Below, in pieces: positions 1,424 through 28,878 of a stretch of DNA of 32,000 nucleotides (its first letter is position 1; the number at the start of each line of letters is the position of its first letter). A model generated the notes under the pieces. The model was not told the origin of the DNA and ran no database searches. It saw only the letters and a list, made by a program, of their open reading frames with translations. The stretch spans positions 30,001 through 62,000 of the forward strand of contig PRDJ01000042.1 of assembly GCA_003345555.1 (NCBI GenBank), written 5' to 3'. This stretch comes from Candidatus Thorarchaeota archaeon. GTDB taxonomy: Archaea > Asgardarchaeota > Thorarchaeia > Thorarchaeales > Thorarchaeaceae. A program made the translations under genes and the position numbers.

Positions 1424-3187
1424 ATGACTCTGGATGTGAAAACCCTCGGCGACTTGTACGGCAAGGTAGCAATAGGGAATCAGGCCATGCTTGGGATTAT
1501 GGGAAACAACCGTGATATCAGCGTCGGTGAGATATTCATGGTGTATTCCCAGAGAGACGGACACGAGCGAGTGTTCTTCTTCCGTGTCTCAGCCCTCCAA
1601 AACTACCTGCGTCATGTGGACGACATGGCGCGCGTAGCTGGCACATTGATGATTGAAGGGGACGCGTATCTCTCAGGCATCAAGAGAGACATGCTACTCG
1701 AAGTCGAAGGAAAGATGCTTGGGTACGCAGAAATGGAGAACGGGAAATACGCCTTCAAATCGCCGCGCCGTCTTCCTGACCATCTTGCTGATGTGTACCG
1801 ACCAGTCCCCGGTGTCTCCGACAAGACCGTAAGGGAAATGCTGTCTAGTCAAACAGGCGGCGAAGTGCTCATCGGAGACCTACAAGTTGGCGAGGCCACG
1901 CTAGATGTCCCGGTGGGCATACCTGCGAAGTTCCTTCCAATGCACATGGGAATCTATGGGTCCACAGGTTCTGGAAAAAGCAACCTGATGATGGTGATGA
2001 TCAAATCCATTTTGGATTCAAATCTCGAGGGAATTCGCAGTCCGAATGAGCCTCGTACCCGTATCTCGGCCTTCTGCATAGACCCGCACGACGAGTTCGC
2101 CAAGGGTGTCACGAAGTTCGGAATCCAGAACGTAGTGGAGGCAATGGATCAGGACACTAGGTCGGCGGTCATAGGTGACTTCTACTACCTTACAACGCAT
2201 CTCAAGGCCACTCCTCGGGAAATCCAGCGATATGGCAGGGAGATACGTATCCTATGGGAAGAGATCCTGCCGCACGATCTCTATACCATCATGGACTTCA
2301 CTCCACAAATGGTATCCTTCATTGATGCTCAGTATGCCATTAACAAAGAGAACTGGATATCGGCAATACTTGACCTGACGGAAGACCCCGACATGGTACA
2401 AAAGGGAACTCTGAATGCTGTCCAGCGACGCCTTCGATTCATTGAACGTTCGCCAATCTTCGTCCGTAGCGGTTCGTCTATACTAGATGATGTATTCGTG
2501 GCCATGGAGACGGGGCGCGTGCTCGTAGTCAACACCAGCCTGATGAGTGATACGGAGCAGTTTCTCCTTACGACAGTAGTCGCACGTTCGATATCCGATC
2601 TCAGAAGGGCCGCGAAAAGCAGCGGAACGCTGGGGGACTTCGAGACTCAGGGCCAGCTTAGGCTTCCCGCCCCATTCTTCGGCCGCATCAAGACCAAGGC
2701 AAGATCCTTCTACACGAAAGGTGGAAAGAGCGATGATTCTGGGGTACGCGATCCACGCGAAATGCCTGTGATTCTCGTGACCGTTGAAGAAGCCCCTTCA
2801 ATTCTCAATCCCCAACTGATGCAGGGGCAGTCGGTGTTCAAGGACATCTCTCGTCAAGGGCGGAAGTTCAACATAGGCCTCGTCGTGATAAGTCAGCAGG
2901 TCAGCGTTCTGGATAATGTGATACTGAGCCAGATGAACACCCAGGTCAATCTTCGACTCGGTAACGAGCATGAGATTCAAGCATGTGTCGATAATGCAAG
3001 CATCAACATATCGGGCATGGAGAACGAGTTCCGTGTCATGGTCAAAGGAGACGCGATACTCACAGCATCATATCGTGAGCTTCCTTTGCCTGTCCATGTA
3101 CCTCTCTTCGATACATTGTTCGAACGTGACAAGGGAAAGTACAAACCATCAAAGACCGCACGGTCAAGCGAGAAACACACACTCTGA
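1424..3187 (+). CDS. herA: HerA bipolar helicase / FtsK-HerA ATPase
   Basis: N-terminal HAS-barrel-like region, Walker A GSTGSGKS, IDPHDEF, Walker B region VTVEEAP, and SRQGRKFNIGLVVISQ. Lies between nurA and mre11. Confidence 0.9.
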   Translation: MTLDVKTLGDLYGKVAIGNQAMLGIMGNNRDISVGEIFMVYSQRDGHERVFFFRVSALQNYLRHVDDMARVAGTLMIEGDAYLSGIKRDMLLEVEGKMLGYAEMENGKYAFKSPRRLPDHLADVYRPVPGVSDKTVREMLSSQTGGEVLIGDLQVGEATLDVPVGIPAKFLPMHMGIYGSTGSGKSNLMMVMIKSILDSNLEGIRSPNEPRTRISAFCIDPHDEFAKGVTKFGIQNVVEAMDQDTRSAVIGDFYYLTTHLKATPREIQRYGREIRILWEEILPHDLYTIMDFTPQMVSFIDAQYAINKENWISAILDLTEDPDMVQKGTLNAVQRRLRFIERSPIFVRSGSSILDDVFVAMETGRVLVVNTSLMSDTEQFLLTTVVARSISDLRRAAKSSGTLGDFETQGQLRLPAPFFGRIKTKARSFYTKGGKSDDSGVRDPREMPVILVTVEEAPSILNPQLMQGQSVFKDISRQGRKFNIGLVVISQQVSVLDNVILSQMNTQVNLRLGNEHEIQACVDNASINISGMENEFRVMVKGDAILTASYRELPLPVHVPLFDTLFERDKGKYKPSKTARSSEKHTL

Positions 3188-3195
3188 GGCGCATC

Positions 3196-4509
3196 TTGAT
3201 GACTGCACGCATTGCGCACATATCGGACACCCATCTGGGCACGAGGCCTAGAGACGGGGTCAGGTCCGATGTCTGGGCAGTCGAGATGCGTACACGAGTC
3301 ATCGAGAATGATTTCTATGAGCGCTTCGCAGAGATCTTTGACAGGATTGCCTCACTTGATCCTCCAGTCGACCTAGTCATACACTCCGGTGATCTCTATG
3401 ACTCACCGTCGGAAGAGAACCCCTCGCAGCCGCCGGTGGTAGCTCAGGAGACTGCGCTGTCAGTTCTGAAGAGCTTCACCGAGAAGACTGGAATTCCTGT
3501 TCTGATAATAGAGGGAAATCACGGGCTCTATAGATCAATGGATGTGTCATTGCTTGATTCTCTAAGAATGTCAATCTCTGGTCTCAATGTTGCCACGCAT
3601 GTTGACCTCAAACAAGCATTCAACAAGAAAGAACCGCTGAAGTACTCTTACGACAAACTGGACGTCTTCTGTTTCCCATACATGAGCGCGAGTCTGTTGG
3701 AATCATCCGGCTTGGTAAACGAATTCAGTGACTGGATAATGACGAATCAGTCTCCTAGCAGCCGGAAGGCATCTGTTGCAGTAGTTCATGGAATGGATAG
3801 TGATCGAACACTTCCTCCATCTATCCTTAGTATGGGTTATAGCTACATTGCTCTTGGACACGATCACAAGCAGCACAAGCATTCTGAGAATGCTTGGTAC
3901 GCGGGATCGACTGAAAGATGGAGGTTCGATGAGGCAGGACAAAAGAAGGGCTTTCTCGTAGTCGAGATAGCGGCAAACGAACGCCCGTCTGTGACCCCTG
4001 AATACATTCATTTCGCGCGTCCAGTCTTCAACCGAAGAATGACCACTGAGGATATTGGAAGCACCGAATCTCTGACTCAGAAAATCGATGCTTGGTTTTC
4101 TGAAAAGGGTATCAGGGGACCTTGGGATTCGTCAACTGCCGCTAGAATCAGGTTCGATTTTCGAGGGTCTTCTCGTATTGGTAATCTCGAAATCATGAAT
4201 GCAATGGAAGCCTACAGAACGAAGGTCCTGCAATCGGGGTCTGATTACAACATAGCCCAGCTGACTTGGCATACTCGCCCGCCTGAAACCGAACCGAGTC
4301 TCACCGCATTTCCTGAAATCGAGTCCGAGTACCTTATCGAGAACCCCGAAGAGGATTTTCGCGCATACTTGGACACGATCAAAGGGCTTGACACACAGTT
4401 TGACCCCGCTCTCTTGACGAAAGTGGCTGTGCGAGCACTCAAGATGTCCGTAAAGAAAGGTGAAGACAAGCTTACACTCGAAACACTGTCGGAGGACGAG
4501 GGCAGATGA
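3196..4509 (+). CDS. mre11: Mre11 (SbcD-like) metallophosphoesterase nuclease
   Basis: Phosphoesterase motifs HISDTHLG, HSGDLYD, GNHG, VVHG and ALGHDH, plus YAGSTER. Its stop overlaps the rad50 start (ATGA overlap at 4506-4509). Confidence 0.92.
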   Translation: MMTARIAHISDTHLGTRPRDGVRSDVWAVEMRTRVIENDFYERFAEIFDRIASLDPPVDLVIHSGDLYDSPSEENPSQPPVVAQETALSVLKSFTEKTGIPVLIIEGNHGLYRSMDVSLLDSLRMSISGLNVATHVDLKQAFNKKEPLKYSYDKLDVFCFPYMSASLLESSGLVNEFSDWIMTNQSPSSRKASVAVVHGMDSDRTLPPSILSMGYSYIALGHDHKQHKHSENAWYAGSTERWRFDEAGQKKGFLVVEIAANERPSVTPEYIHFARPVFNRRMTTEDIGSTESLTQKIDAWFSEKGIRGPWDSSTAARIRFDFRGSSRIGNLEIMNAMEAYRTKVLQSGSDYNIAQLTWHTRPPETEPSLTAFPEIESEYLIENPEEDFRAYLDTIKGLDTQFDPALLTKVAVRALKMSVKKGEDKLTLETLSEDEGR

Positions 4510-6596
4510 AGGTGCTGAGCATCAAACTCAGGAGCTTCAAGCCCTTCCGTAGTCTTCTCCTACCTGACGATGAAGGCGATCTTCCAGAAGGCTTGATACT
4601 GGTTCGAGGACCGAATTCCACAGGCAAGTCCTCGCTCTTCGAAGCAATACTGTGGGGTCTCTGGGGAGCAGACGCAGTGAAGCTCAACAACGATGAGCTT
4701 GTTAGCTTCGGTGCGGCGTCATGTGAAGTTACCATAATCTTTGAGATTGAGAAAAAGCAGTACAAGATTGTCAGGTCGTACGGTTTGGATAAGCGTCTGT
4801 CTGTCACGCTCTACGCGAAGGCAAACGGCAACTGGAAACCCATAGCTGACAAGAGCAGTTCCGTGGCTACGAAGCTAGAAGAGATACTCAACCTCCAGCT
4901 GAACCAAGCTCTAAACACGCTTCTTGTCCGACAAGGGGAAGTCGCCACCATTGCCAGTGCTACTCCCTCTGAGCTGAGAGAGCTTCTTGTAAAGGTTTAC
5001 AACATTGAGCTATTGGATAAGATGGAAACACATCTGGAGAGTCTTGAGTCAGATGTTGCATCCAAGGTCAAGACGCTGAAAGACAACTATGAGGCGCCTG
5101 AACTAATCGAGGAGAGAATCAGACAATCGGAATCCCGAATTCGCAAACAAGAAGAAGGGCTTGAGGCAAGAACCAACCAACAGGCTGTCTTGCTCTCTCA
5201 GGTAGAGTCTCTTCCCAATCCGGCCATCCTTTCAGAAGTTCTCAAGCTCGATTCTGACGTAGAAGGAAAAGAACGCGAGTACGAGTATGCCATAAGCAAC
5301 AGAGACAGAGAGCTTGCCGATGCTGGACTAGTCGACTCGACAGATATAGTGGTCCGGGCCCGCCAAGAGGAACTTGCCAAGGAGTTCGAGCGACTAACTG
5401 AACAGCGCGCCAGAATCGAGTCGGATATCACAGATGCTGATCAAGAAATCGGTGGGCTGGCTAAGGTTGACAAAGACCTGCTCAAGCAAGTCGAGACGCT
5501 TCAAGGAGCTGCCGAGTCTGTGGGACAAGGAATGAAATGTCCCACCTGTGGGAAGGCTCTATCAGTGAAAGAGCGCGACGAGTTGGTAGGGCAATACAGA
5601 GCCACACTCAACAAGGACGCTTCGCGACGAGACGACCTATCCAAGCTGAAGACCAAGCTGGCCGCGAACAAGAGGATTACGGACGAGAGACTCAATACCA
5701 TTCCTTCCGCTATTGAGGCATTGAAACGGCTTTCTGAGCGGCAAGCAGCAGTTGACGAAACAAAGGGGCGGGTGGAGGAGTCTAAGGGATTGCTGAAATC
5801 CTTCCTCAAGGAACATGATATGCCTCCTCTACACGATCTCCTTAGCCAGTTTAACGCCAATGACTTGGCTGAGCTGCAACGCATCGTAGACGCAAGAAGC
5901 ATTCAGCTCGAGTCGCTGAATCGAGAGATTGAATCAGCAAAAGCGGAGCTAGACGATAGGCGCAGGGAGAAAGATGAACTCGAAGCCAGGGCTACCCGAA
6001 TGAAAGAGATTGGCGCTGAGATTTCAGACATGGAGACACTTGTTGAGCATACGAAGTATGTGAGAAGGAATCTTGTGAAGGGATTCATCTCCGACTATGT
6101 TGTTCAGAAACGATTGATTGGCATAATCAGGGCGGCCACTAATCAATACGTTCAGTCGTTTACGAATGGTCAGTACACTCGTATTGACTTGGTGCCGACT
6201 CCGGCAATGGCAAAGTCCGGTGCTGGGTTAATGCTCAAAGTTCATGACGATCGCGACAATCAGGAAAAGAAGGCCAGCCAGCTTAGCTACGGGGACCGGA
6301 CTGCGGTGAGTCTTGCGCTGAGACTCGGAATCAGTCGAACCATGAGTAGAATCCGACCTTTGAAGGACAGTCCCGCGTATTCTCCTCGGGTCCAATGCGT
6401 TCTTCTGGATGAGCCTCTAGGCGGTCTCGATAGAGAACGGAGGGCATCGGTCGTCAGGAATCTAACAAGCGATCAAAGCTTCAAACAGATATTCCTGATT
6501 ACGCATACCGATGTCCAAGGATTGGAGGGTGTCTCCGTCATCGATGTCGCAAAAAGCGGCTCGGGAAGTACAGCTACGCTCATCGCCACATCATAG
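4506..6596 (+). CDS. rad50: Rad50 (SbcC-like) SMC-family ATPase
   Basis: Walker A GPNSTGKSS, Q-loop VRQGE, central zinc hook CPTC at residues 345-348, coiled coils, signature-position LSYGD, Walker B/D-loop LLDEPLGGLD, H-loop LITH. Confidence 0.93.
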   Translation: MKVLSIKLRSFKPFRSLLLPDDEGDLPEGLILVRGPNSTGKSSLFEAILWGLWGADAVKLNNDELVSFGAASCEVTIIFEIEKKQYKIVRSYGLDKRLSVTLYAKANGNWKPIADKSSSVATKLEEILNLQLNQALNTLLVRQGEVATIASATPSELRELLVKVYNIELLDKMETHLESLESDVASKVKTLKDNYEAPELIEERIRQSESRIRKQEEGLEARTNQQAVLLSQVESLPNPAILSEVLKLDSDVEGKEREYEYAISNRDRELADAGLVDSTDIVVRARQEELAKEFERLTEQRARIESDITDADQEIGGLAKVDKDLLKQVETLQGAAESVGQGMKCPTCGKALSVKERDELVGQYRATLNKDASRRDDLSKLKTKLAANKRITDERLNTIPSAIEALKRLSERQAAVDETKGRVEESKGLLKSFLKEHDMPPLHDLLSQFNANDLAELQRIVDARSIQLESLNREIESAKAELDDRRREKDELEARATRMKEIGAEISDMETLVEHTKYVRRNLVKGFISDYVVQKRLIGIIRAATNQYVQSFTNGQYTRIDLVPTPAMAKSGAGLMLKVHDDRDNQEKKASQLSYGDRTAVSLALRLGISRTMSRIRPLKDSPAYSPRVQCVLLDEPLGGLDRERRASVVRNLTSDQSFKQIFLITHTDVQGLEGVSVIDVAKSGSGSTATLIATS

Positions 6597-8477: not shown

Positions 8478-9981
8478 TCGCGCTCTTCGTAGGATTGTCC
8501 TAATCCTGTTCAAATACAGGATACTCCTTGTGATACTCATATCGGCCTGTCTTGTTTGGGCGTGGATATTCAATCTGGCCGCGGCGGATTTCATTGAAGG
8601 TGGGTCGAGGCCTTTCAGAGCGGCCTGGAACGGATATGGCGCAATCAACGTCGCGGGATTGACGATTCCGCTGAACCTTGAGGGTTGGGCTGACTACGAC
8701 TACTACTACATCAGTTGGGCAGACCAGTTTCTAAGAGGCGTTCAGCCTTACACAACCGAATTCGATTATCAAACGATTGGTGGCACAGTATACAACATTC
8801 CGTATTTCTTTCCCCCTCTGTTCTTGTATCTGTGCGCATTCGGGAGGGTGCTGCCGATTCAACCGTTTGGAATCGGATTGGTCATTACAGTGTTTGGCTA
8901 TCTCACGGCTTTGCCGATATACGGGGTCGGAAAGTATCTCTCCGACAACCCGCATGTGGGAGAAATCGCAGCTGCAACGTATCTCTTCAATCCAATTGTG
9001 CTTTATCACACAGTGGTTGATTGGCTAAATCCAGCTCCGTTTGTCTTCTTTGTCATGCTTTCCATCTATCTGATAGTCTCTGGCCACAGGGTCTCCGGTG
9101 TCCTTGCAATGGCGACCGCGGCAATGTTCAAGCAGACGGCGTTCGTGCTAGCCATACCTCTAGTCTGCTTCTTCCTGAGAAGACCTCCTCAGAAAGATGT
9201 GGCTCCCGAAACCGAGGCTCTTCAGGAGGGAAAGAGGTCCCTTCCGAGCGACAAGCTCGACTTGCGAAGTTTCTCAAAGATCGTTCTGGTTGTTCTATTG
9301 TATGCGGTCGCCCTTTCTGTTCCATACTTGTTAGACCCGCTGAACTATGGATACTTCATCTTTCAGCGTGCAGGTGCCTTTCTATTGACCGATTTAGCGA
9401 CACCTCCCGGCGACGGGCTGCCTATGACCTTGGCTGTCATTCTCATTGTGATGCATGCACCGGAGTGGTTAATCCAAGGTGTGAATCTAATGACGTATTA
9501 CTCGGTCGGTCTCATCCTCGGGCTTTTGCCCATCCTCGTACAGATGCTTATCGAAATGAAGGATGACCGCAATCTGACCGGATATTGGCGAAGGATGCTC
9601 TATCTCACATTATTGCTCCTACTCTGGATTCACCTCTTCTCGCCACGGGGAATCTACAAGTACTACCTAGTCGCGCTTGTACCCTTCTTCTCGATCTTGT
9701 CGTCAACGACTATGTGCTCCAAAGAGTCTGGCGAATTTCGTCCGTCACTCCCGATGGTCGTTAACCCATTTGTGATCAGTATACTGATTATTGTGCCCGA
9801 CAGAACCATCTACATGCTATACTTGATACTAATCCTTCTATCATATGTCTTCTACAGACAGCTTGGCTTGGCATACAGACTTCTTGGCCGGACCTTCAGG
9901 CGAGGTATGAACGGCCTTCGCCACCTACGAGGGCATTCGGAGCCTCCAAGTTCGTCGAGTACTCTTGCGGAAGGAAGATGA
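8461..9981 (+). CDS. Polytopic membrane glycosyltransferase, GT-C fold (GT87/DUF2029/PIG-M-like), paralog 2
   Basis: Shares GWADYDYYY..W...LRG..PY, FPPLF, YLFNP, WLNP, FKQTA and PRG.YKYY with the upstream paralog. The ORF opens at GTG 8431; ATG 8461 is preferred. Confidence 0.65.
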   Translation: MLESLNRALRRIVLILFKYRILLVILISACLVWAWIFNLAAADFIEGGSRPFRAAWNGYGAINVAGLTIPLNLEGWADYDYYYISWADQFLRGVQPYTTEFDYQTIGGTVYNIPYFFPPLFLYLCAFGRVLPIQPFGIGLVITVFGYLTALPIYGVGKYLSDNPHVGEIAAATYLFNPIVLYHTVVDWLNPAPFVFFVMLSIYLIVSGHRVSGVLAMATAAMFKQTAFVLAIPLVCFFLRRPPQKDVAPETEALQEGKRSLPSDKLDLRSFSKIVLVVLLYAVALSVPYLLDPLNYGYFIFQRAGAFLLTDLATPPGDGLPMTLAVILIVMHAPEWLIQGVNLMTYYSVGLILGLLPILVQMLIEMKDDRNLTGYWRRMLYLTLLLLLWIHLFSPRGIYKYYLVALVPFFSILSSTTMCSKESGEFRPSLPMVVNPFVISILIIVPDRTIYMLYLILILLSYVFYRQLGLAYRLLGRTFRRGMNGLRHLRGHSEPPSSSSTLAEGR

Positions 9982-11172
9982 TTAGGAGGCTTGCTTGTCA
10001 AATTCCTCTCTCTTCTCAGCAAGTCTCCTGTCTAGGCTAGCTAACCGTTCGTCCAGTTTTTCAACCTGCTCATCATAGCTCTCTCTTGTCATAGTGCCAG
10101 TGGAGAGTTTCTGTTCTATGTGATCTCGGAGCTGATGAACTGACTTGATTTCCTTCTCGATAGAATCGATGTCAGCTATTATCTCCTCGATTCTGTTCTC
10201 TTCCTCGGATTTGAATTGTTTCGCGGGCACCATGAGTCCGAACTGTTGTTGTGTCTTTTCCGCAAAGTCTTGGAATTGACCTCTGAGCCCTTCGATGCTC
10301 TTCTCGATTCTCCCCGTGTTCTCTGTGAGTCTCGCTATGTCTTTTTGTAAATCAATGACTGCATTGACAAGTCTGCGGAGTGTCTTGTCTATCTCGGCTT
10401 CGAAAGTGACCTGTGCGCCCTCACCAGCCGAGGGTCTTTCCTCTGCGGCCTTCGCTTGTGCCGCAACCACACGGCTAGGCCTTGTCAGTCGGTCTTCTCC
10501 TGTAAGCCATCTGAAACAGTTGAGTGCGAAGGTTGTGTTACCGTCGTTCTTCAAACCTCCCCCTCTTCGGAATATCTCATAGGTCCCGATGCAGATGACC
10601 CTCCCCCGCTCGAAGTCTGCGGCAGCTATGACAGGCTGATTTGGCGGATCCGCAGCCCCCGATGTTGCTGCTATGGCCATTGCCTTTCCCGAAAGCCTCA
10701 AGGTGCATGATGATGGCAGCAAGATATTGTTGATTCCTTCGGTTATTGAATGTTGGACGAAGCCTGATATCATGAGCAGAGTTGGAAGACCTGCGTTGTC
10801 TCTTTCATCCTTGACTGCCGTGTTGTCGAACTCGATACCAAAGTTCTTCGACAACAGGCTCATATTGGTCATGAGCCCCTTGTCGCCGCCAGAGAGCGAC
10901 AGCAACATCAATCCGCCGCCGTCCTGAACAAACTTCTTGATGGCATCAATTTCATTGGACCGAAGCTTGGAGCCATTCGGGCAGGCAAACACGAGAGCGT
11001 CAATTCCTTCCAGCTTCTTGGGCATTATCATATACTCTGTATATGCCTCGACGTCATAGTCATTGTCTTTGAGAAGCTGACCGAGCTGTGAATAAGTCGT
11101 GTCTAAGCGTCCTCTCTCGTTCTGAGTCTGGTCAAATGCAATTCGCTTTCTCCTCGCGCTCACGTTGCGCAC
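9982..11172 (-). CDS. GIFT (GldG/IFT52-like, DUF4350-type) domain protein with C-terminal coiled coil
   Basis: IAFDQTQNE..., DALVFACP, EIDAIKKFVQDGGGLMLL, NFGIEFDN, GRVICIGTYEIF and N...ALNCFRWL follow the class I GATase-like GIFT pattern. Residues ~260-396 are heptad-rich. The start may be GTG 11163. Confidence 0.6.
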   Translation of the reverse strand: MRNVSARRKRIAFDQTQNERGRLDTTYSQLGQLLKDNDYDVEAYTEYMIMPKKLEGIDALVFACPNGSKLRSNEIDAIKKFVQDGGGLMLLSLSGGDKGLMTNMSLLSKNFGIEFDNTAVKDERDNAGLPTLLMISGFVQHSITEGINNILLPSSCTLRLSGKAMAIAATSGAADPPNQPVIAAADFERGRVICIGTYEIFRRGGGLKNDGNTTFALNCFRWLTGEDRLTRPSRVVAAQAKAAEERPSAGEGAQVTFEAEIDKTLRRLVNAVIDLQKDIARLTENTGRIEKSIEGLRGQFQDFAEKTQQQFGLMVPAKQFKSEEENRIEEIIADIDSIEKEIKSVHQLRDHIEQKLSTGTMTRESYDEQVEKLDERLASLDRRLAEKREEFDKQAS

Positions 11173-11283
11173 CTCGGGCTGCCTGGCATACTGATTACGA
11201 TGGCCAGTGACTAATGAGACTTGTGCTGGTGAGTACTCTGGAGTGCGAACACTTTATCATCCGGTTTGGCAGATTCTGTCTGC

Positions 11284-11715
11284 ATGAGTAGTCCCGAGGA
11301 CTGTGTATTCTGCAGAATCGTCAAAGGTGAAGTCCCTGCATCAATCGTCTTCCAAGATGAGGTATGTCTGGCCTTCATGGACATATACCCTGTCACCAGA
11401 GGCCACTGTCTGCTGATTCCGAAGAAGCACTTCAACAACCTGCTCGATGTTGACTTGGACGTGCTCTCACATCTCGCCCGGCGCCTAGCTGAGTTGACTC
11501 GCAAGGTTCAGTCTGGCTTGAAGCCCGAGGGCGTATTGAATGCAGCCGCCAACGGACCTGGTGCCGGTCAGGATATCCCACACTTACATTTCCACATAAT
11601 CCCGCGCAACAGAGGCGATGAATTCGGTTTTCATTTTCCTAGGAATTACAGGGAAAAGATGGCAGATAAAGCGCAGCTGGACCGGATTGCCAAAACAATC
11701 CGGGAGGCCAAGTAA
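11284..11715 (+). CDS. HIT (histidine triad) family nucleotide hydrolase
   Basis: CVFCRIVKGE, GHCLLIPKKH and the triad HLHFHIIPR. ATG 11284 is preferred over 11266. Confidence 0.92.
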   Translation: MSSPEDCVFCRIVKGEVPASIVFQDEVCLAFMDIYPVTRGHCLLIPKKHFNNLLDVDLDVLSHLARRLAELTRKVQSGLKPEGVLNAAANGPGAGQDIPHLHFHIIPRNRGDEFGFHFPRNYREKMADKAQLDRIAKTIREAK

Positions 11716-23720: not shown

Positions 23721-24458
23721 ATGGACGAACCACTGCAATCCGCGCTCTACGCATCAATCGCTACACTGGACCAGCTCAAGAAAATGTACGACATGGGCGT
23801 TGTTGATGTCAGGTCGTATGAAAGGGAGTCTGAAGCGCTAATAACAGAGGTTCGGAATTGCATCGAACAGATGCGGAGAACCGGTCTTGACGTTGGGAAC
23901 TTCGTGGGTCAGGCCCGGATATCGGAGTCGTTTCCCGAAGCGTCGAACATGCTGGGGCTGTACGGACGAGACACGCGGCAGCCAGGTATAGGGATGACAA
24001 CTGATCAGTACTTCGACTACATCGGACTTGCCGTCTTAGATGTGGCTACCGCGAATTCCTCGAAAGGGCTGATGGGACTTGCGGAACTCATTGTCGAGGT
24101 CGTGCGCCTGCTGCCAGAGCTCAAGTCTGTCAGCTACAATGACGTGATCGAGGCAGTGAACCGCGTGTCTCAACATGGATTGATACCGGGCATTCGGACG
24201 CTTAGGGGCGGAGTCAAAGTTGTGGAACTGCGTCCGTTAGAGCTGCGTCGTGACCAAGCAGATGTAATCAATGCTGCCGCCACCAAGGGGTACGTTTCCA
24301 TTGAAGAGCTCATGATGCAGCTCAAGTGGTCAGAGGACCATGCACGTCAAGTTCTCTCCAGTCTGGTCGATGCTGGCATGGCAGTGGCAGACATACGGTT
24401 CTCGACGGGTGGCCGCTATTACTTCCCGGGTTTAAGACCTAGAGATAGTACAGTGTAG
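23721..24458 (+). CDS. ESCRT-II Vps22/Vps36-like (EAP30) tandem winged-helix protein with an N-terminal Vps28-like module
   Basis: Residues ~95-240 track Vps22/SNF8 (ELRRDQADVINAAATKGYVS.EEL...LKWSED.ARQVL..L...G.A..D......YYFPGL). Residues ~5-80 resemble the Vps28 N-terminal helical region. Confidence 0.8.
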   Translation: MDEPLQSALYASIATLDQLKKMYDMGVVDVRSYERESEALITEVRNCIEQMRRTGLDVGNFVGQARISESFPEASNMLGLYGRDTRQPGIGMTTDQYFDYIGLAVLDVATANSSKGLMGLAELIVEVVRLLPELKSVSYNDVIEAVNRVSQHGLIPGIRTLRGGVKVVELRPLELRRDQADVINAAATKGYVSIEELMMQLKWSEDHARQVLSSLVDAGMAVADIRFSTGGRYYFPGLRPRDSTV

Positions 24459-24506: not shown

Positions 24507-25220
24507 TCAGACCACTGCTAGTATTGCGCCTTTCTTCGAGTCAACCCATTTTGCCAATCCTTTGTCAACCATTATCTGCATGATTCGATGCAAGTCTCTT
24601 TCAGGGAGCTTCGAGAAGTCTTGGCCGGATTCCTGCACGACAATTGACTGCACATCTAGGCGCAGTTTTCCTGTCTTTATTGCCCAACGGTATATGATGT
24701 CACCCCATTCCTCGAGGGGTCGCCAGTAGACTCGAAGCTGTCTTTTCTTCTCGTCGAGCCATTCTCCAACGTCCTTCTTGACCAATGATTCACCTATGAA
24801 TCTGAAGGCGTCGACCTTTCCAAGGATGTCACTGAACGGTTTCTCCTTCACGAAGGTTGACACTGAAAGAACATGTATGCTTTTGAACTCGGTCCAAATC
24901 ATAAGATAGTCTGACCACTCTTCCGCCCACATTTCTATGTCTTTTTCTGCAGGTGGAATATGATACATCCATTCAGCTTGGTTTACGTTTCCCCACTGCG
25001 GGGCCGGGAGCTCTAGGACCTGTGAGGGCGCAGACTCAGGGACGATTTCAGTCTGAATCGACTCGAGCTCCTGAGTCTGCGAATCCTCTTCAGCTTCAGT
25101 TTCGGTAACATCGACAAGAGTGTCGGTCTTAGGTGTCTCTTTGCCAACAGAAGCATCAGACGTTGGTTTGGGGGTTGGCTTCTGTCGCTCCTTTTCTTTC
25201 CGGCGTTCCTTCACTTCCAA
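24507..25220 (-). CDS. vps25: ESCRT-II Vps25-like protein with acidic N-terminal extension
   Basis: WMYHIPP (cf. eukaryotic WQYRFPP), WSDYL, and RVYWRPLEEWGDIIYRWA (cf. WRRPEEWGKLIYQW). TTG start. Confidence 0.85.
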   Translation of the reverse strand: MEVKERRKEKERQKPTPKPTSDASVGKETPKTDTLVDVTETEAEEDSQTQELESIQTEIVPESAPSQVLELPAPQWGNVNQAEWMYHIPPAEKDIEMWAEEWSDYLMIWTEFKSIHVLSVSTFVKEKPFSDILGKVDAFRFIGESLVKKDVGEWLDEKKRQLRVYWRPLEEWGDIIYRWAIKTGKLRLDVQSIVVQESGQDFSKLPERDLHRIMQIMVDKGLAKWVDSKKGAILAVV

Positions 25221-25223
25221 TCC

Positions 25224-26453
25224 CTAAGACGCCTCCCCCCATTCGATATACTTCCTTACGTCTTCTGGAGTTGTACCGGGTCCAATGTTCTCAATAGCCC
25301 GCAGAAAGTCGTCCCGTGAGACGGGCCGTAGTTCGAGTCGTGCGCGGTCGCTATCGAGCTTTCCCACGCGCTGTAGGTCTCTTATTGGTTCCATCGCGGC
25401 TTCCCGACATACCACACTAATATCCCGGCCACTATAACCGTCGGTCAAATCAGCAAGTTCTCCGAAGTCGACTTCCGGGGACAGTTCAATGTCTTCCATG
25501 TGAATCTCGAATATCTTTCTCCGTGAGGTTTTCCTTGGCAAGGGGATGTGAATCTTCTTCTCAAATCTTGATCGAAGAGCGAAGTCCAGTTCCCATGGAA
25601 GATTGGTAGCACCGATTACAGTAACCCTATCATCGGGATGAGTCGCCAATCCCTGCAGCTCAGTCAATAGCTGAGTCTTGAGTCGTCTCTCCCCGCCAAC
25701 ATCATGTCCCGTTCTTGAGATTCCAACAGAATCAAGCTCATCCATGAAGATAACGGAGGGCTGACTCCTCCTCGCCATTTCAAAGAGGGTCATGACGAGC
25801 TTCTCTGACTCGCCGAGCCACTTGCTGACGATATTTGCGGCTGAGACATTGAAGAACGTTGCATGCACTTCAGAGGCCACAGCCTTTGCTATGAGAGTCT
25901 TACCACATCCTGATGGTCCATAGAACAGAATGCCCTTCCAGGGCTGCCTCGATTTTCCCTTGAAGAGTTCAGGATGTTTCATTGGAGACACAATGGCTTC
26001 TTGAATTACCTGCTTTGCATCGTCCAATCCTGCAACCTCGGACATTTTCAAATCCGGTCGTTCAGTAAGAATCGTGTCAGCAATCATATCCTGAAGGTGT
26101 CTCATGTCTTCGTTGTCGTCGCCTGTTTCCGAAGTCCTTCCGGATGGCAGTGATGGCTCTCCCCTGTCTATAGAAAATGTGGCGGGAATACTTGGAATCG
26201 TCGGTCGTTCCGCTTGCCTTGTCTTAAGGCCTGAGATGTATCTTACCCGATCTACACACTCTTGGGCCCTGCTCAGGTAGTGCTTCTGCAAAGATGGAAG
26301 GGATGAGGAATTCGAGAGCTTGATGAGTATCATGCTTGCCTTTAGATAGTCACTACAAGCCTCTTTCTGGAGTCCTCTCCTGTCCAAATCTATTGCCTTT
26401 TCGAGCAAAGCCTTGACTCCAAGGTCGAGGCGGTCAGCGTCTGTTCCTGACAT
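25224..26453 (-). CDS. vps4: Vps4-like AAA+ ATPase with N-terminal MIT domain
   Basis: MIT helices (KAIDLDRRG...Y), Walker A GPSGCGKT, pore loop KWLGESEKLV, Walker B FMDELD, GATNLPWELD, RFEKKIHIPLP. Adjacent to ESCRT-II and ESCRT-III genes. Confidence 0.92.
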   Translation of the reverse strand: MSGTDADRLDLGVKALLEKAIDLDRRGLQKEACSDYLKASMILIKLSNSSSLPSLQKHYLSRAQECVDRVRYISGLKTRQAERPTIPSIPATFSIDRGEPSLPSGRTSETGDDNEDMRHLQDMIADTILTERPDLKMSEVAGLDDAKQVIQEAIVSPMKHPELFKGKSRQPWKGILFYGPSGCGKTLIAKAVASEVHATFFNVSAANIVSKWLGESEKLVMTLFEMARRSQPSVIFMDELDSVGISRTGHDVGGERRLKTQLLTELQGLATHPDDRVTVIGATNLPWELDFALRSRFEKKIHIPLPRKTSRRKIFEIHMEDIELSPEVDFGELADLTDGYSGRDISVVCREAAMEPIRDLQRVGKLDSDRARLELRPVSRDDFLRAIENIGPGTTPEDVRKYIEWGEAS

Positions 26454-26609
26454 TCAAGGTCGCCAGTCAAGTGCGCTTGAATGGTTAAGAGTTTCTGTGT
26501 TTCGTAGCGCGATACTCCTTCAGTTGTCCTGCCCGCCAGAAAGGCACGTTTGTTACGAAGGCTTAAAGGCGGAGGTCTCGCACAACCCACAGAAGTTCAT
26601 CATCAGGAC

Positions 26610-27236
26610 ATGGTGAGGTCGTTGGGTACATTCAGGAAGGCTATGACTTGGGGTCGCAAGAAGCCGGACGTTGCAGAGGTAACCAGTCAGCTTAGAATCC
26701 TAGGCAAAGAGCTCGAGCGAGAGAGAAACAGGCTCGAGAAGGAAGAGACTGAGACCAAGGCTCGAGCGGTGCGGGCTCGGAAAGAGGGCCATGTCGACGC
26801 CTACAAGACCTACGCAGTAGAGATGATCCGGTTCAGGAAGTATGCTTTGTCTGTCGACAAATCGCGGCTTCACCTACTGAGGGTACTCGGCCATATCGTT
26901 CATGCTCAGTCGGCCGCTAAGACGAGCTTGGCAGTAGAAAAGGTCGCCAAGATTCTCGGGATACTAGGTGATGCAAAAGACCCAACAAAGGTTGTTCGGA
27001 GTCTTGATGAGATTACTCGAAGACTGGACGCAATGGAAATCGAAAGCGGGATTTCTGACGAAGCCTTTGACTCTATGAAAGACAGCAAGGTGACGTCAGA
27101 AGAGCTGGCCGCAGCACTGCAGGAGATTGATGCCGAGGCTGGGGCTGCAAAGGTCGTCTCGCGGGCCGGTCCAGCTACAGAGGCTGAGAAACTCGAAGAA
27201 GAGATCAAGTTGCTAGAGAAGGAACTTGGTGTCTAG
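26610..27236 (+). CDS. ESCRT-III subunit, Vps2/24/46 (CHMP1-3) class
   Basis: N-terminal FRKAMTWGRKK helix; ELERERNRLEKEE...ARKEGHVDA resembles CHMP2A ELDRERQKLE...AKQGQMDA; C-terminal MIM1-like LEEEIKLLEKEL. Start uncertain (ATG 26610 or TTG 26622). Confidence 0.88.
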   Translation: MVRSLGTFRKAMTWGRKKPDVAEVTSQLRILGKELERERNRLEKEETETKARAVRARKEGHVDAYKTYAVEMIRFRKYALSVDKSRLHLLRVLGHIVHAQSAAKTSLAVEKVAKILGILGDAKDPTKVVRSLDEITRRLDAMEIESGISDEAFDSMKDSKVTSEELAAALQEIDAEAGAAKVVSRAGPATEAEKLEEEIKLLEKELGV

Positions 27237-27237
27237 A

Positions 27238-28878
27238 CTAGCGCCCAAAGACCTGACGATTCCCAGAAGCCGTTTCTAGTCTTTTTCTCGTTTCAAATGA
27301 ATCTCGCATGAGTCCCTTGTATCTCCTGATGAAATCCTCTGGGACCAGCTGACCGTTCCTCAATAGACGAACCGTTTCTCTAGCGGCATCCTCAATCGTT
27401 ATCGCGTCTCTTCTGAGTCCCATTGTTTCTGCAGAGTCGGGAACCGGAGAAGGCATGCCACCTGCACCGAACAAGCCGCCGAGGTCTCGGCCGAGTCTGT
27501 CGTGATACTGCAAAGGAGCTGTGCGGGCTCCGTTGTCAGATGCGTTTCCGAATGGATAGTACGAAGCCGATCGCCGGTCGTATGGTCCGTATCCAGCAGA
27601 TGCTTGTGTCCCGATGTCAGCTTTTCCACCTGAACACATGAGCGAGTAGGCGAGTTCTTCTACCTTGAGCCTGACATCGCTAATGCTCACGTCGGTCTGT
27701 CCGAGCTTTCTCGTTCGCTGAAGGTCTGACTGCATATACTTGTCGAATTTTCTGGCGATTTCTACATAATCTGGCAGAACACTCTCTGTCTGATCGCTGC
27801 AAGTTATCTTGATATCGCCCTGCTTCATTCTCAGGACTGTTCTCTTTCTCAGCCTGCCATCCTCTTCTAAACCCTTCATGTAAGCAAGGGGTATATCGAA
27901 GACTATGTCGGTTTTCTTTCGGAGTCTTCCGGTTTCAGCAATAAAGACGAGCCTCTTGTTGGTTATGTACAAGGTGCCAGTGGCCTTGTCATTCTTCACG
28001 AAGTCACTGCCTGCGATTCTGATGTCGGGTAACGCACAGACTGGCAGTTCGTTTACAGACAGTTCTGCAGTCTCATAGAACCCCGCGAATTGCTTCCTAT
28101 AGTAGTCCAGTCCGTCCAGCTGCTGTTCGATATCTACTAATGTCAGCCTCGCCTCTTCGATTGCGTCATCAATATTCTTCCGGTATTGACCCACAAGATG
28201 GGTGACACGATTCGTTACTCCGCCTACAAAGGGGAACTGATCGGCAGACCATGCGCTGGAATCGAGGAGCCCCTTGGTCTCAGCAGCCATTTGCCTCGAG
28301 ACTATCTCCGCTTGGCTTGTCACTCTGTTCTTGATGGCAGGGATCTCCATCTCGATGTTCTCAATCTTCTCTTCCAGCCAGCGATAGTGAAGGAAATTCG
28401 CCATCCTGAGAGAAACAAGAAGCCTCTTGGCTGACATCAGCTGGTTGGTGAAATCGCGCAGGCGTGTGTATCCATAGTGGAGTGTGATTATGGCATGACG
28501 CAGGTCTTGAGCCAGCACCTTTCTTTTGTCCTCTACAGACACCGTGTGTGTGGAATGGCACCTGGGACAGATTTCTTCGATTCGCTTCCCAGCACTCAGC
28601 TCTCGAGAGCCGCATTCCGGGCATTTCTCGAACTTCTGCCCTGGGGCGGGAGTGCCAAGGCCGTGGTGGCAATTACTGCATACAATGTGCTCGCTTGACT
28701 TGGTCTCAAGGCATTCCAAGCACAATACCTCTCCGCAATCCTCACAAAGATGCGTGGCTCTATTGCTCTTGCAGACTTTACAGAGCTGGGTAGAGGATTC
28801 GTTACTCAACTGGGTGCCTCCGAACATCTGGGCTTGCATATTGTACTGAGGAGTCATGGATAATTGGCTATGTATCAC
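27238..28878 (-). CDS. Multidomain protein: Zn fingers (six CxxC pairs), helical region, PH/GRAM(GLUE)-like domain, steadiness box (Vps23/TSG101-like ESCRT-I core)
   Basis: 12 Cys in residues 33-107; GTLYITNKRLVF at 301-312; C-terminal IEDAARETVRLLRNGQLVPEDFIRRYKGLMRDSFETR resembles TSG101 IEDTIFYLGEALRRGVIDLDVFLKHVRLLSRKQFQLR. Confidence 0.7.
   Translation of the reverse strand: MIHSQLSMTPQYNMQAQMFGGTQLSNESSTQLCKVCKSNRATHLCEDCGEVLCLECLETKSSEHIVCSNCHHGLGTPAPGQKFEKCPECGSRELSAGKRIEEICPRCHSTHTVSVEDKRKVLAQDLRHAIITLHYGYTRLRDFTNQLMSAKRLLVSLRMANFLHYRWLEEKIENIEMEIPAIKNRVTSQAEIVSRQMAAETKGLLDSSAWSADQFPFVGGVTNRVTHLVGQYRKNIDDAIEEARLTLVDIEQQLDGLDYYRKQFAGFYETAELSVNELPVCALPDIRIAGSDFVKNDKATGTLYITNKRLVFIAETGRLRKKTDIVFDIPLAYMKGLEEDGRLRKRTVLRMKQGDIKITCSDQTESVLPDYVEIARKFDKYMQSDLQRTRKLGQTDVSISDVRLKVEELAYSLMCSGGKADIGTQASAGYGPYDRRSASYYPFGNASDNGARTAPLQYHDRLGRDLGGLFGAGGMPSPVPDSAETMGLRRDAITIEDAARETVRLLRNGQLVPEDFIRRYKGLMRDSFETRKRLETASGNRQVFGR

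Follow-up and report, generated by a model that had tools for sequence, protein, structure and literature searches.

The stretch of DNA analysed here (the window) comprises 32,000 nucleotides of a Candidatus Thorarchaeota genome, from contig 42 of a 2.28-Mb assembly of 93% completeness. It contains a compact ESCRT locus, in which a gene for a chimeric Vps28-N/Vps22 protein, P0001, adjoins genes for Vps25-like, Vps4, ESCRT-III (Snf7) and steadiness-box proteins. The P0001 gene (23721–24458, + strand) is followed by that of a 237-residue Vps25-like ESCRT-II subunit (24507–25220, − strand; Pfam PF05871, E = 5e-11, residues 98–186), which carries at its N terminus an acidic stretch of some 95 residues. 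Next to this lie a Vps4 AAA ATPase with MIT, AAA and Vps4_C domains (25224–26453, − strand; Pfam AAA, 9e-39; Vps4_C, 8.5e-5; MIT, weak) and an ESCRT-III subunit of the Snf7 family (26550–27236, + strand; PF03357, E = 5e-13). The last member, P0271 (27238–28878, − strand), is composed of a Zn-ribbon, a coiled coil, a PH (GRAM-like) domain and a steadiness box, as judged from its translation and from weak Pfam matches to GRAM/PH and Zn-ribbon profiles. It is read here as 546 residues from a GTG start; a 533-residue form is on record. Its Vps23-type steadiness-box hairpin (residues ~486–535; 27274–27423, − strand) is delineated by conservation in 29 homologues, across which E514, F516, I517, R518, R519, Y520, L523 and R525 are invariant. 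The same arrangement with vps25, vps4 and ESCRT-III genes recurs in the sister-family genome (G112).

The open reading frame of P0001 encodes 245 residues from an ATG start that is common to 19 of 21 aligned Thorarchaeota sequences. Translation confirmed both the reading frame and the N-terminal sequence quoted in the first-pass annotation, which had described the product as a fusion of the Vps28 N-terminal region with a Vps22/EAP30 tandem winged helix. The AlphaFold2 (AF2) model of the full-length protein has a mean pLDDT of 83.7. Its N-terminal domain (residues 5–85; 23733–23975, + strand), delimited by hhalign, phmmer, Foldseek, the AF2 model and invariant alignment columns, folds into a helical hairpin (H3–24 and H30–54) with short helices behind it (residues 58–78), and the motif A-S-I-A-T-L-D at residues 11–17 is invariant in the alignment of orthologues. 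A junction (residues 86–94; 23976–24002, + strand) separates the point at which the likeness to Vps28 stops, residue 85, from that at which the likeness to Vps22 begins, residue 95. It falls in a flexible linker of about 10 residues, modelled with low confidence over approximately residues 82–93, with pLDDT below 50 at residues 82–88, and the linker differs in length between orthologues.

Beyond the junction, two winged helices make up the remainder of the chain. Winged helix 1 (residues 94–170; 24000–24230, + strand) is built of H94–111, E117–119, H120–130, H139–151, E157–160 and E166–169, and aligns with human SNF8 (from residue 95) and with canonical Asgard Vps22. Winged helix 2 (residues 177–234; 24249–24422, + strand) is built of H177–186, E191–193, H194–201, H205–217, E222–224 and E232–234. 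The Pfam EAP30 profile (PF04157) matches residues 92–224 with 49.6 bits, above its cut-off of 26.8 (E = 5e-13), but covers only profile positions 83–218 of 219, its end falling in winged helix 2. In a phmmer search of PDB sequences, residues 95–238 aligned with residues 95–239 of SNF8 (E = 2e-14), and yeast Vps22 was also matched. The best Foldseek matches of the full model are the Vps22 chains 2zme_A (2.8e-10), 3cuq_A and 1u5t_A. A profile of the Thorarchaeota proteins aligned residues 95–243 with residues 98–247 of canonical Asgard Vps22 (hhalign probability 99.96%, E = 4e-39), with 36% identity over 148 columns. Residues 95–243 of P0001 are thus the Vps22 tandem winged helix, as the first-pass annotation had it.

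The identity of the N-terminal domain could not be settled by Pfam alone, and profile–profile comparison, a wide phmmer search and structure were used as well. The Vps28 profile, PF03997, aligns its positions 2–62 with residues 7–65 and scores 18.0 bits on the whole protein and 20.1 bits on residues 1–90, below its gathering cut-off of 24.5; it matches 10 of 21 orthologues at E < 0.1. The phmmer search against 1.84 billion representatives returned two archaeal proteins aligned through residues 5–84 of P0001 only (E = 2e-5 and 5e-5), both of which are full-length Vps28 according to Pfam (63.5 and 58 bits, profile positions 3–188). Their alignments with P0001 run ungapped over about 80 residues and have the invariant I-A-T-L, G26 and F61 in common with it. 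A profile of the Thorarchaeota N-termini compared with one of Asgard Vps28 (n = 7) gave an alignment of 81 ungapped columns (hhalign, 99.2%, E = 7.4e-20), placing residues 5–85 of P0001 on residues 10–90 of Vps28. Searched against PDB sequences, the same N-terminal profile had the yeast Vps28-N chains 2f6m_B, 2p22_B, 2f66_B and 2caz_B as its best natural matches (E = 0.008–0.014).

Structural comparison points to the same family. The AF2 model of residues 1–92 (pLDDT 80.5) contains the hairpin followed by short helices, and each of its top nine Foldseek matches is a Vps28-N chain from an ESCRT-I headpiece of known structure (6vme, 2f6m or 2caz), with 2p22 and 2f66 also within the top 20. Superposition on Vps28-N gave TM-scores of up to 0.73, with an r.m.s.d. 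of 2.7 Å over 81 columns. The accompanying E-values are weak (0.3–0.9, all above 0.1), a consequence of the small size and helical nature of the domain, and this evidence was weighed by ranking, TM-scores and accord with the sequence evidence. Chains of the Vps23 steadiness box align with the hairpin only, over 52–55 columns and at lower TM-scores, and Vps22 and Vps36 chains are absent from the top 50 matches.

Two other readings of the N-terminal domain bear on these results. Residues 1–90 might be the ordinary N-terminal helices of Vps22 or Vps36, the likeness to Vps28 being an artefact of coiled-coil composition. The segment is as long as its counterpart in human SNF8, where residue 95 aligns with residue 95, and both the sub-threshold Pfam score and the weak E-values of the small-domain structural search count in its favour. 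The first-pass annotation had itself named the lack of a Vps28 match, or a match to ordinary Vps22 helices, as evidence against its assignment. Vps28 was matched by profile and by structure, however, and comparison of the Thorarchaeota N-termini with canonical Asgard Vps22 (n = 9) revealed no similarity (hhalign, 0.3%, about the level at which canonical Asgard Vps22 compares with Vps28, 0.4%). Canonical Asgard Vps22 proteins cover the whole of the EAP30 profile (positions 1–219), whereas the match in P0001 begins at position 83, and the canonical N-terminal helical domain (profile positions 1–82) was not found in P0001. The ungapped alignment with Vps28, with its shared I-A-T-L, G and F, moreover extends past the hairpin into the short helices, and no other family appears among the nine best structural matches. 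Residues 1–90 are therefore almost certainly not ordinary Vps22 helices. According to the second reading, the hairpin would be a generic one of steadiness-box or CdvA type without a specific relation to Vps28. The hairpins of Vps23, Vps37, Vps28 and CdvA are considered related by Makarova et al. (2024), whose Table S3 also gives PF18822 (CdvA) a value of 85% in this region. The specific retrieval of Vps28 proteins by sequence searches, and a match that takes in the helices behind the hairpin where Vps23 chains cover the hairpin alone, make this reading very improbable.

Residues 5–85 of P0001 are accordingly homologous to the N-terminal domain of Asgard Vps28, as the first-pass annotation had proposed, and the Vps28 part stands in place of the usual N-terminal helices of Vps22. 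Taken alone, the mosaic architecture of Vps28-N and Vps22 winged helices is as good as certain.

Orthologues of P0001 are 64–92% identical to it and 225–310 residues long, mostly 245–275; those that carry names are labelled Thorarchaeota or Promethearchaeota, with one exception (Lokiarchaeota). In a phyletic survey of 201 genomes sampled across the phylum, the 43 further genomes of the same family each contained a full-length match, as did the sister family's only genome, at 43% identity. The chimera is present in all 45 sampled genomes of its order, and none was seen outside that order among the 201 genomes. Proteins of other families match P0001 only from about residue 34 onward, and mostly from residue 92. 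Together with the end-to-end match of canonical Vps22 to the EAP30 profile, this identifies the Vps28-type N-terminus as a trait of the order and not of Asgard Vps22 in general.

Stand-alone Vps28 follows a complementary pattern. PF03997 scored above its cut-off in 134 of the 201 genomes, including nearly every other ESCRT-bearing family, and in 0 of 44 genomes of the P0001 family (the 43 sampled and the source genome), where the weak matches are the chimera itself. In the sister family a match just at the cut-off (24.6 bits) also sits in the chimera open reading frame. Within the source genome, the Asgard Vps28 profile matches the N-terminus of P0001 (E = 4.6e-16) through profile positions 12–101 only. 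The C-terminal four-helix bundle of Vps28 was thus not found in P0001, in agreement with the first-pass annotation, and Vps28-C (profile positions 101–215) was absent from the source genome at E ≤ 1. UEV-Vps23 was likewise not found there: the Asgard query touched a single stretch of the genome, the steadiness box of P0271, weakly (E = 0.36) and through its own steadiness-box end. This agrees with a 2023 preprint in which Thorarchaeia are without UEV-Vps23. The absences of Vps28 and UEV-Vps23 are to be read as ‘not found’ in sampled, mostly incomplete genomes. Three further matches in the source genome were set aside: a 186-residue open reading frame on contig 67 and an internal hairpin of a 1003-residue membrane protein on contig 78, whose weak matches to PF03997 and the Vps28 profile are those of coiled-coil hairpins, and a weak EAP30 match on contig 30, which stems from the winged helix of an MCM with an intein.

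Gene order in other lineages suggests how the chimera may have arisen. Inspection of five other Asgard genomes showed the order vps23(UEV)–vps28–vps22, the genes being co-directional and abutting or close, overlapping by 4 bp at one extreme and lying about 330 bp apart at the other; judged from match coordinates, vps28 lies directly upstream of vps22 in most other Asgard families sampled. This adjacency suggests an in-frame deletion across the vps28–vps22 pair. A deletion from approximately codon 90 of vps28 to approximately codon 95 of vps22 would yield exactly the architecture of P0001. This origin is deduced from gene order, and the chances for and against it are put as about equal. The lineage restriction and the vps28–vps22 adjacency would together give the chimera a simple and checkable origin.

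The history of the chimera may also include a duplication, since the source genome encodes another paralogue, in which the Vps22 module is canonical. This protein of 798 residues is encoded on contig 39. Its last ~230 residues align with the whole of canonical Vps22, N-terminal helices included (hhalign, 99.8%, 211 columns), and match residues 30–240 of SNF8 (E = 3.4e-10). An atlas search with its N-terminal 600 residues returned only its own Thorarchaeota cluster. Other genomes of the order likewise encode comparable proteins, of about 690–860 residues. The layout, with a long N-terminal region ahead of a Vps22-like core, recalls that of Vps36.

A candidate partner for the Vps28-N domain is encoded within the locus. 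Of 61 genomes of the order, 59 have a steadiness-box protein of the P0271 type, its gene usually lying 3–5 kb from that of the chimera. P0271 fits the Znr_PH_CC_SB architecture of Makarova et al. (2024), and its orthologue was entered as ThorAB25_08990|SB by Hatano et al. (2022). The complex of P0271 residues 470–546 with P0001 residues 1–92 was modelled alongside three controls. It reached an ipSAE of 0.76, against 0.01 for the best control. Of 80 solved complexes 58 attain this mark, and of 110 mismatched pairs 2 do, counts that apply only roughly here because our own alignments served as input. The runs had 95% or more of their contacts in common, and the partner pLDDT was at least 79. In the modelled interface, residues 3–40 of P0001, including the invariant A-S-I-A-T-L-D, face residues 503–532 of P0271, including the invariant F-I-R-R-Y. 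The model supports binding of the P0271 steadiness box by the Vps28-N domain of P0001. Since similar Vps23-C:Vps28-N complexes have been solved (2f6m, 2caz and 6vme), the high score may reflect likeness to these structures and not the affinity of this particular pair. Docking of the Vps28-N hairpin on the P0271 steadiness box seems somewhat better than an even prospect.

In the eukaryotic ESCRT-I headpiece, which comprises three hairpins, Vps28-N packs against Vps23. By analogy, the Vps28-N hairpin of P0001 would pack on the Vps23-type steadiness box at the C terminus of P0271. The Vps22 winged helices of P0001 would bind Vps25, which would in turn recruit ESCRT-III and Vps4, both encoded next door. 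The link joining ESCRT-I with ESCRT-II would then be covalent in P0001, replacing the non-covalent contact of Vps28-C with Vps36 and rendering Vps28-C dispensable. That this link is hard-wired in one polypeptide, as the first-pass annotation had suggested, is plausible and is backed by the complex model, which scores far above its controls; stand-alone Vps28 was not found in the sampled genomes of the order. Mosaic architecture, docking role and origin by deletion, taken together as one explanation, are considered fairly probable.

The Vps28-N hairpin could instead serve mainly in the self-assembly of ESCRT-II, as a homodimer or with the 798-residue paralogue, and not in docking to ESCRT-I. 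The canonical N-terminal helices that pack Vps22 on Vps36 in eukaryotic ESCRT-II are missing from P0001, steadiness-box hairpins bundle together by nature, and Thorarchaeota Vps22 interacts with itself in a yeast two-hybrid assay (Hatano et al. 2022). This self-association could equally be provided by the winged helices, however, and in the complex model, whose score greatly exceeds those of the controls, the invariant motif of the hairpin is part of the interface with P0271, the steadiness-box protein being moreover conserved and linked to the chimera gene across the order. Self-assembly is thus unlikely to be the main role of the hairpin. The two roles are nevertheless compatible. Two hairpins (P0001 and P0271) have been identified for the headpiece-like complex here, as against three in the eukaryotic headpiece, and a headpiece of three hairpins would result from two Vps28-N hairpins and a single steadiness box.

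Docking of P0271 through Vps28-N also forms part of a wider proposal, in which ESCRT-I and ESCRT-II would have collapsed into a single ubiquitin-independent scaffold. In this scheme an in-frame deletion in an ancestral vps28–vps22 pair would have removed Vps28-C and the N-terminal helices of Vps22, P0271, as a membrane-binding protein, would dock directly on ESCRT-II via the covalently attached Vps28-N, and the 798-residue paralogue would take the role of Vps36 in a heteromeric ESCRT-II. Thorarchaeota seemingly lack ubiquitin (Hatano et al. 2022). The proposal is put forward tentatively, its chances being somewhat below even; if true, it would represent a natural experiment in which the bridge from Vps28-C to Vps36 is dispensable.

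The first-pass annotation had left to a literature check whether the fusion was already described for Asgard lineages, and it is. The main text of Makarova et al. (2024, mBio) reports Asgard Vps22 proteins fused to a steadiness box, and their Table S3 matches residues 1–70 of a Thorarchaeota Vps22 (KXH75178.1) to PF03997.15 with an HHpred probability of 99, as ‘VPS28 N-terminal domain, steadiness box’. P0001 fits this type, which consists of Vps28-N (steadiness box) followed by two winged helices in about 245–260 residues and comes from Thorarchaeota. The Thorarchaeota Vps22 of that study (KXH75178.1; cog.002769) has the same architecture and lineage as P0001, and is taken as its orthologue because Thorarchaeota Vps22 proteins are uniform in architecture. 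An orthologue, ThorAB25_09030, was also used as ‘Vps22’ by Hatano et al. (2022, Nat Commun), and its sequence in their supplement has the N-terminal motif and length of P0001. The text of that paper on the Thorarchaeota steadiness-box interaction names Vps28, although no Thorarchaeota Vps28 stands in the protein list as far as it is shown (SB, Vps22 and Vps25, three of its six Thor entries), and for this reason the text is not used as support here. The Vps28-N/Vps22 fusion is therefore already published for Thorarchaeota, and P0001 is a rediscovery. Replacement of the canonical N-terminal helices, restriction to the order, lack of stand-alone Vps28 and the modelled steadiness-box contact are not stated in either paper. 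These points, together with the likely origin of the chimera, are the modest additions made here.

Asgard ESCRT systems offer the best view currently available of the assembly, from modules, of the eukaryotic ubiquitin–ESCRT pathway. P0001 indicates that the N-terminal domain of Vps28 is movable as a unit and that the bridge connecting ESCRT-I to ESCRT-II can be covalent, which, being already in the literature, leaves the overall picture unchanged. Eukaryotic and Asgard Vps28 (PF03997; 2f6m, 2caz, 2p22 and 6vme) have their fold, and detectable sequence homology, in common with the N-terminal domain of P0001, but possess a C-terminal four-helix bundle that contacts ESCRT-II, in place of which P0001 has the winged helices of Vps22. 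Canonical Vps22/SNF8/EAP30 (3cuq_A, 2zme_A and 1u5t_A) has the same tandem winged helices but retains N-terminal helices of its own (profile positions 1–82), which are replaced in P0001; the P0001 gene is linked to vps25, vps4 and ESCRT-III genes. A further parallel is the UEV-Vps23–Vps28 fusion of Heimdallarchaeota (Hatano et al. 2022), in which, as in P0001, ESCRT-I contacts made non-covalently in eukaryotes are united within one Asgard polypeptide. The Heimdallarchaeota protein joins subunits of ESCRT-I and retains Vps28-C, the part that links it non-covalently to ESCRT-II, whereas P0001 joins half of an ESCRT-I subunit to a subunit of ESCRT-II.

The genome that carries the chimera (the 245-residue Vps28-N/Vps22 fusion protein) encodes a second, much longer Vps22 paralogue of 798 residues, on the forward strand of contig 39 (63251–65647; 1252–3648 in extract L015 and 9252–11648 in extract L018). 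The last ~230 residues of this protein form a complete canonical Vps22 module, composed of the N-terminal helices and two winged helices, which was matched to canonical Vps22 by hhalign (99.8%) and which also matches SNF8 (E = 3.4e-10); ~570 residues precede it. Counterparts are present in further genomes of the order Thorarchaeales, and the 798-residue protein is possibly a Vps36 analogue.

Divergent from this gene, on the reverse strand, lies a trafficking-type gene block (L018, 5933–9228). The block encodes a 166-residue multi-cysteine Zn-ribbon protein, a 372-residue protein without a Pfam match, a 290-residue Arf/Ras-family GTPase (Pfam Arf, 5.5e-20) and a 214-residue protein consisting of a coiled coil, a Pro-Ala linker and a C-terminal hairpin. 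The hairpin is CdvA- or steadiness-box-like (PF18822, 23 bits, below threshold), and the 214-residue protein could supply a further hairpin of the ESCRT-I headpiece. A weak EAP30 match on contig 30 of the same genome proved false, originating from the C-terminal winged helix of an intein-containing MCM helicase (3065–6475, reverse strand, extract L016); the intein carries a LAGLIDADG endonuclease.

In the window, the Vps25-like gene (24507–25220, reverse strand) encodes a Pfam ESCRT-II domain at residues 98–186, ahead of which lies an acidic, low-complexity N-terminal extension of ~95 residues; additional N-terminal subdomains have been described in Asgard Vps25 (Makarova 2024). The start of the steadiness-box protein gene (27238–28878, reverse strand) is ambiguous, with 546 residues when the reading frame is taken from a GTG codon versus 533 in the protein on record. 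Annotated N termini vary widely among its homologues, several of which begin past the first Zn ribbons.

The chimera orthologue in G152, a sampled genome of the same genus, aligns as three segments that lie in different reading frames and include one stop (contig 13, 104460–105196; 83–93% identity), a pattern explained either by disruption of the gene or by errors in the assembly. Across the phylum survey, proteins of ~790–820 residues in which Vps28 is represented by its C-terminal domain alone (PF03997 positions 87–182) were found in family f9 and others; one large Asgard family has many of them, beside ordinary Vps28. These agree with an earlier description of multidomain proteins containing Vps28-C (Makarova 2024).
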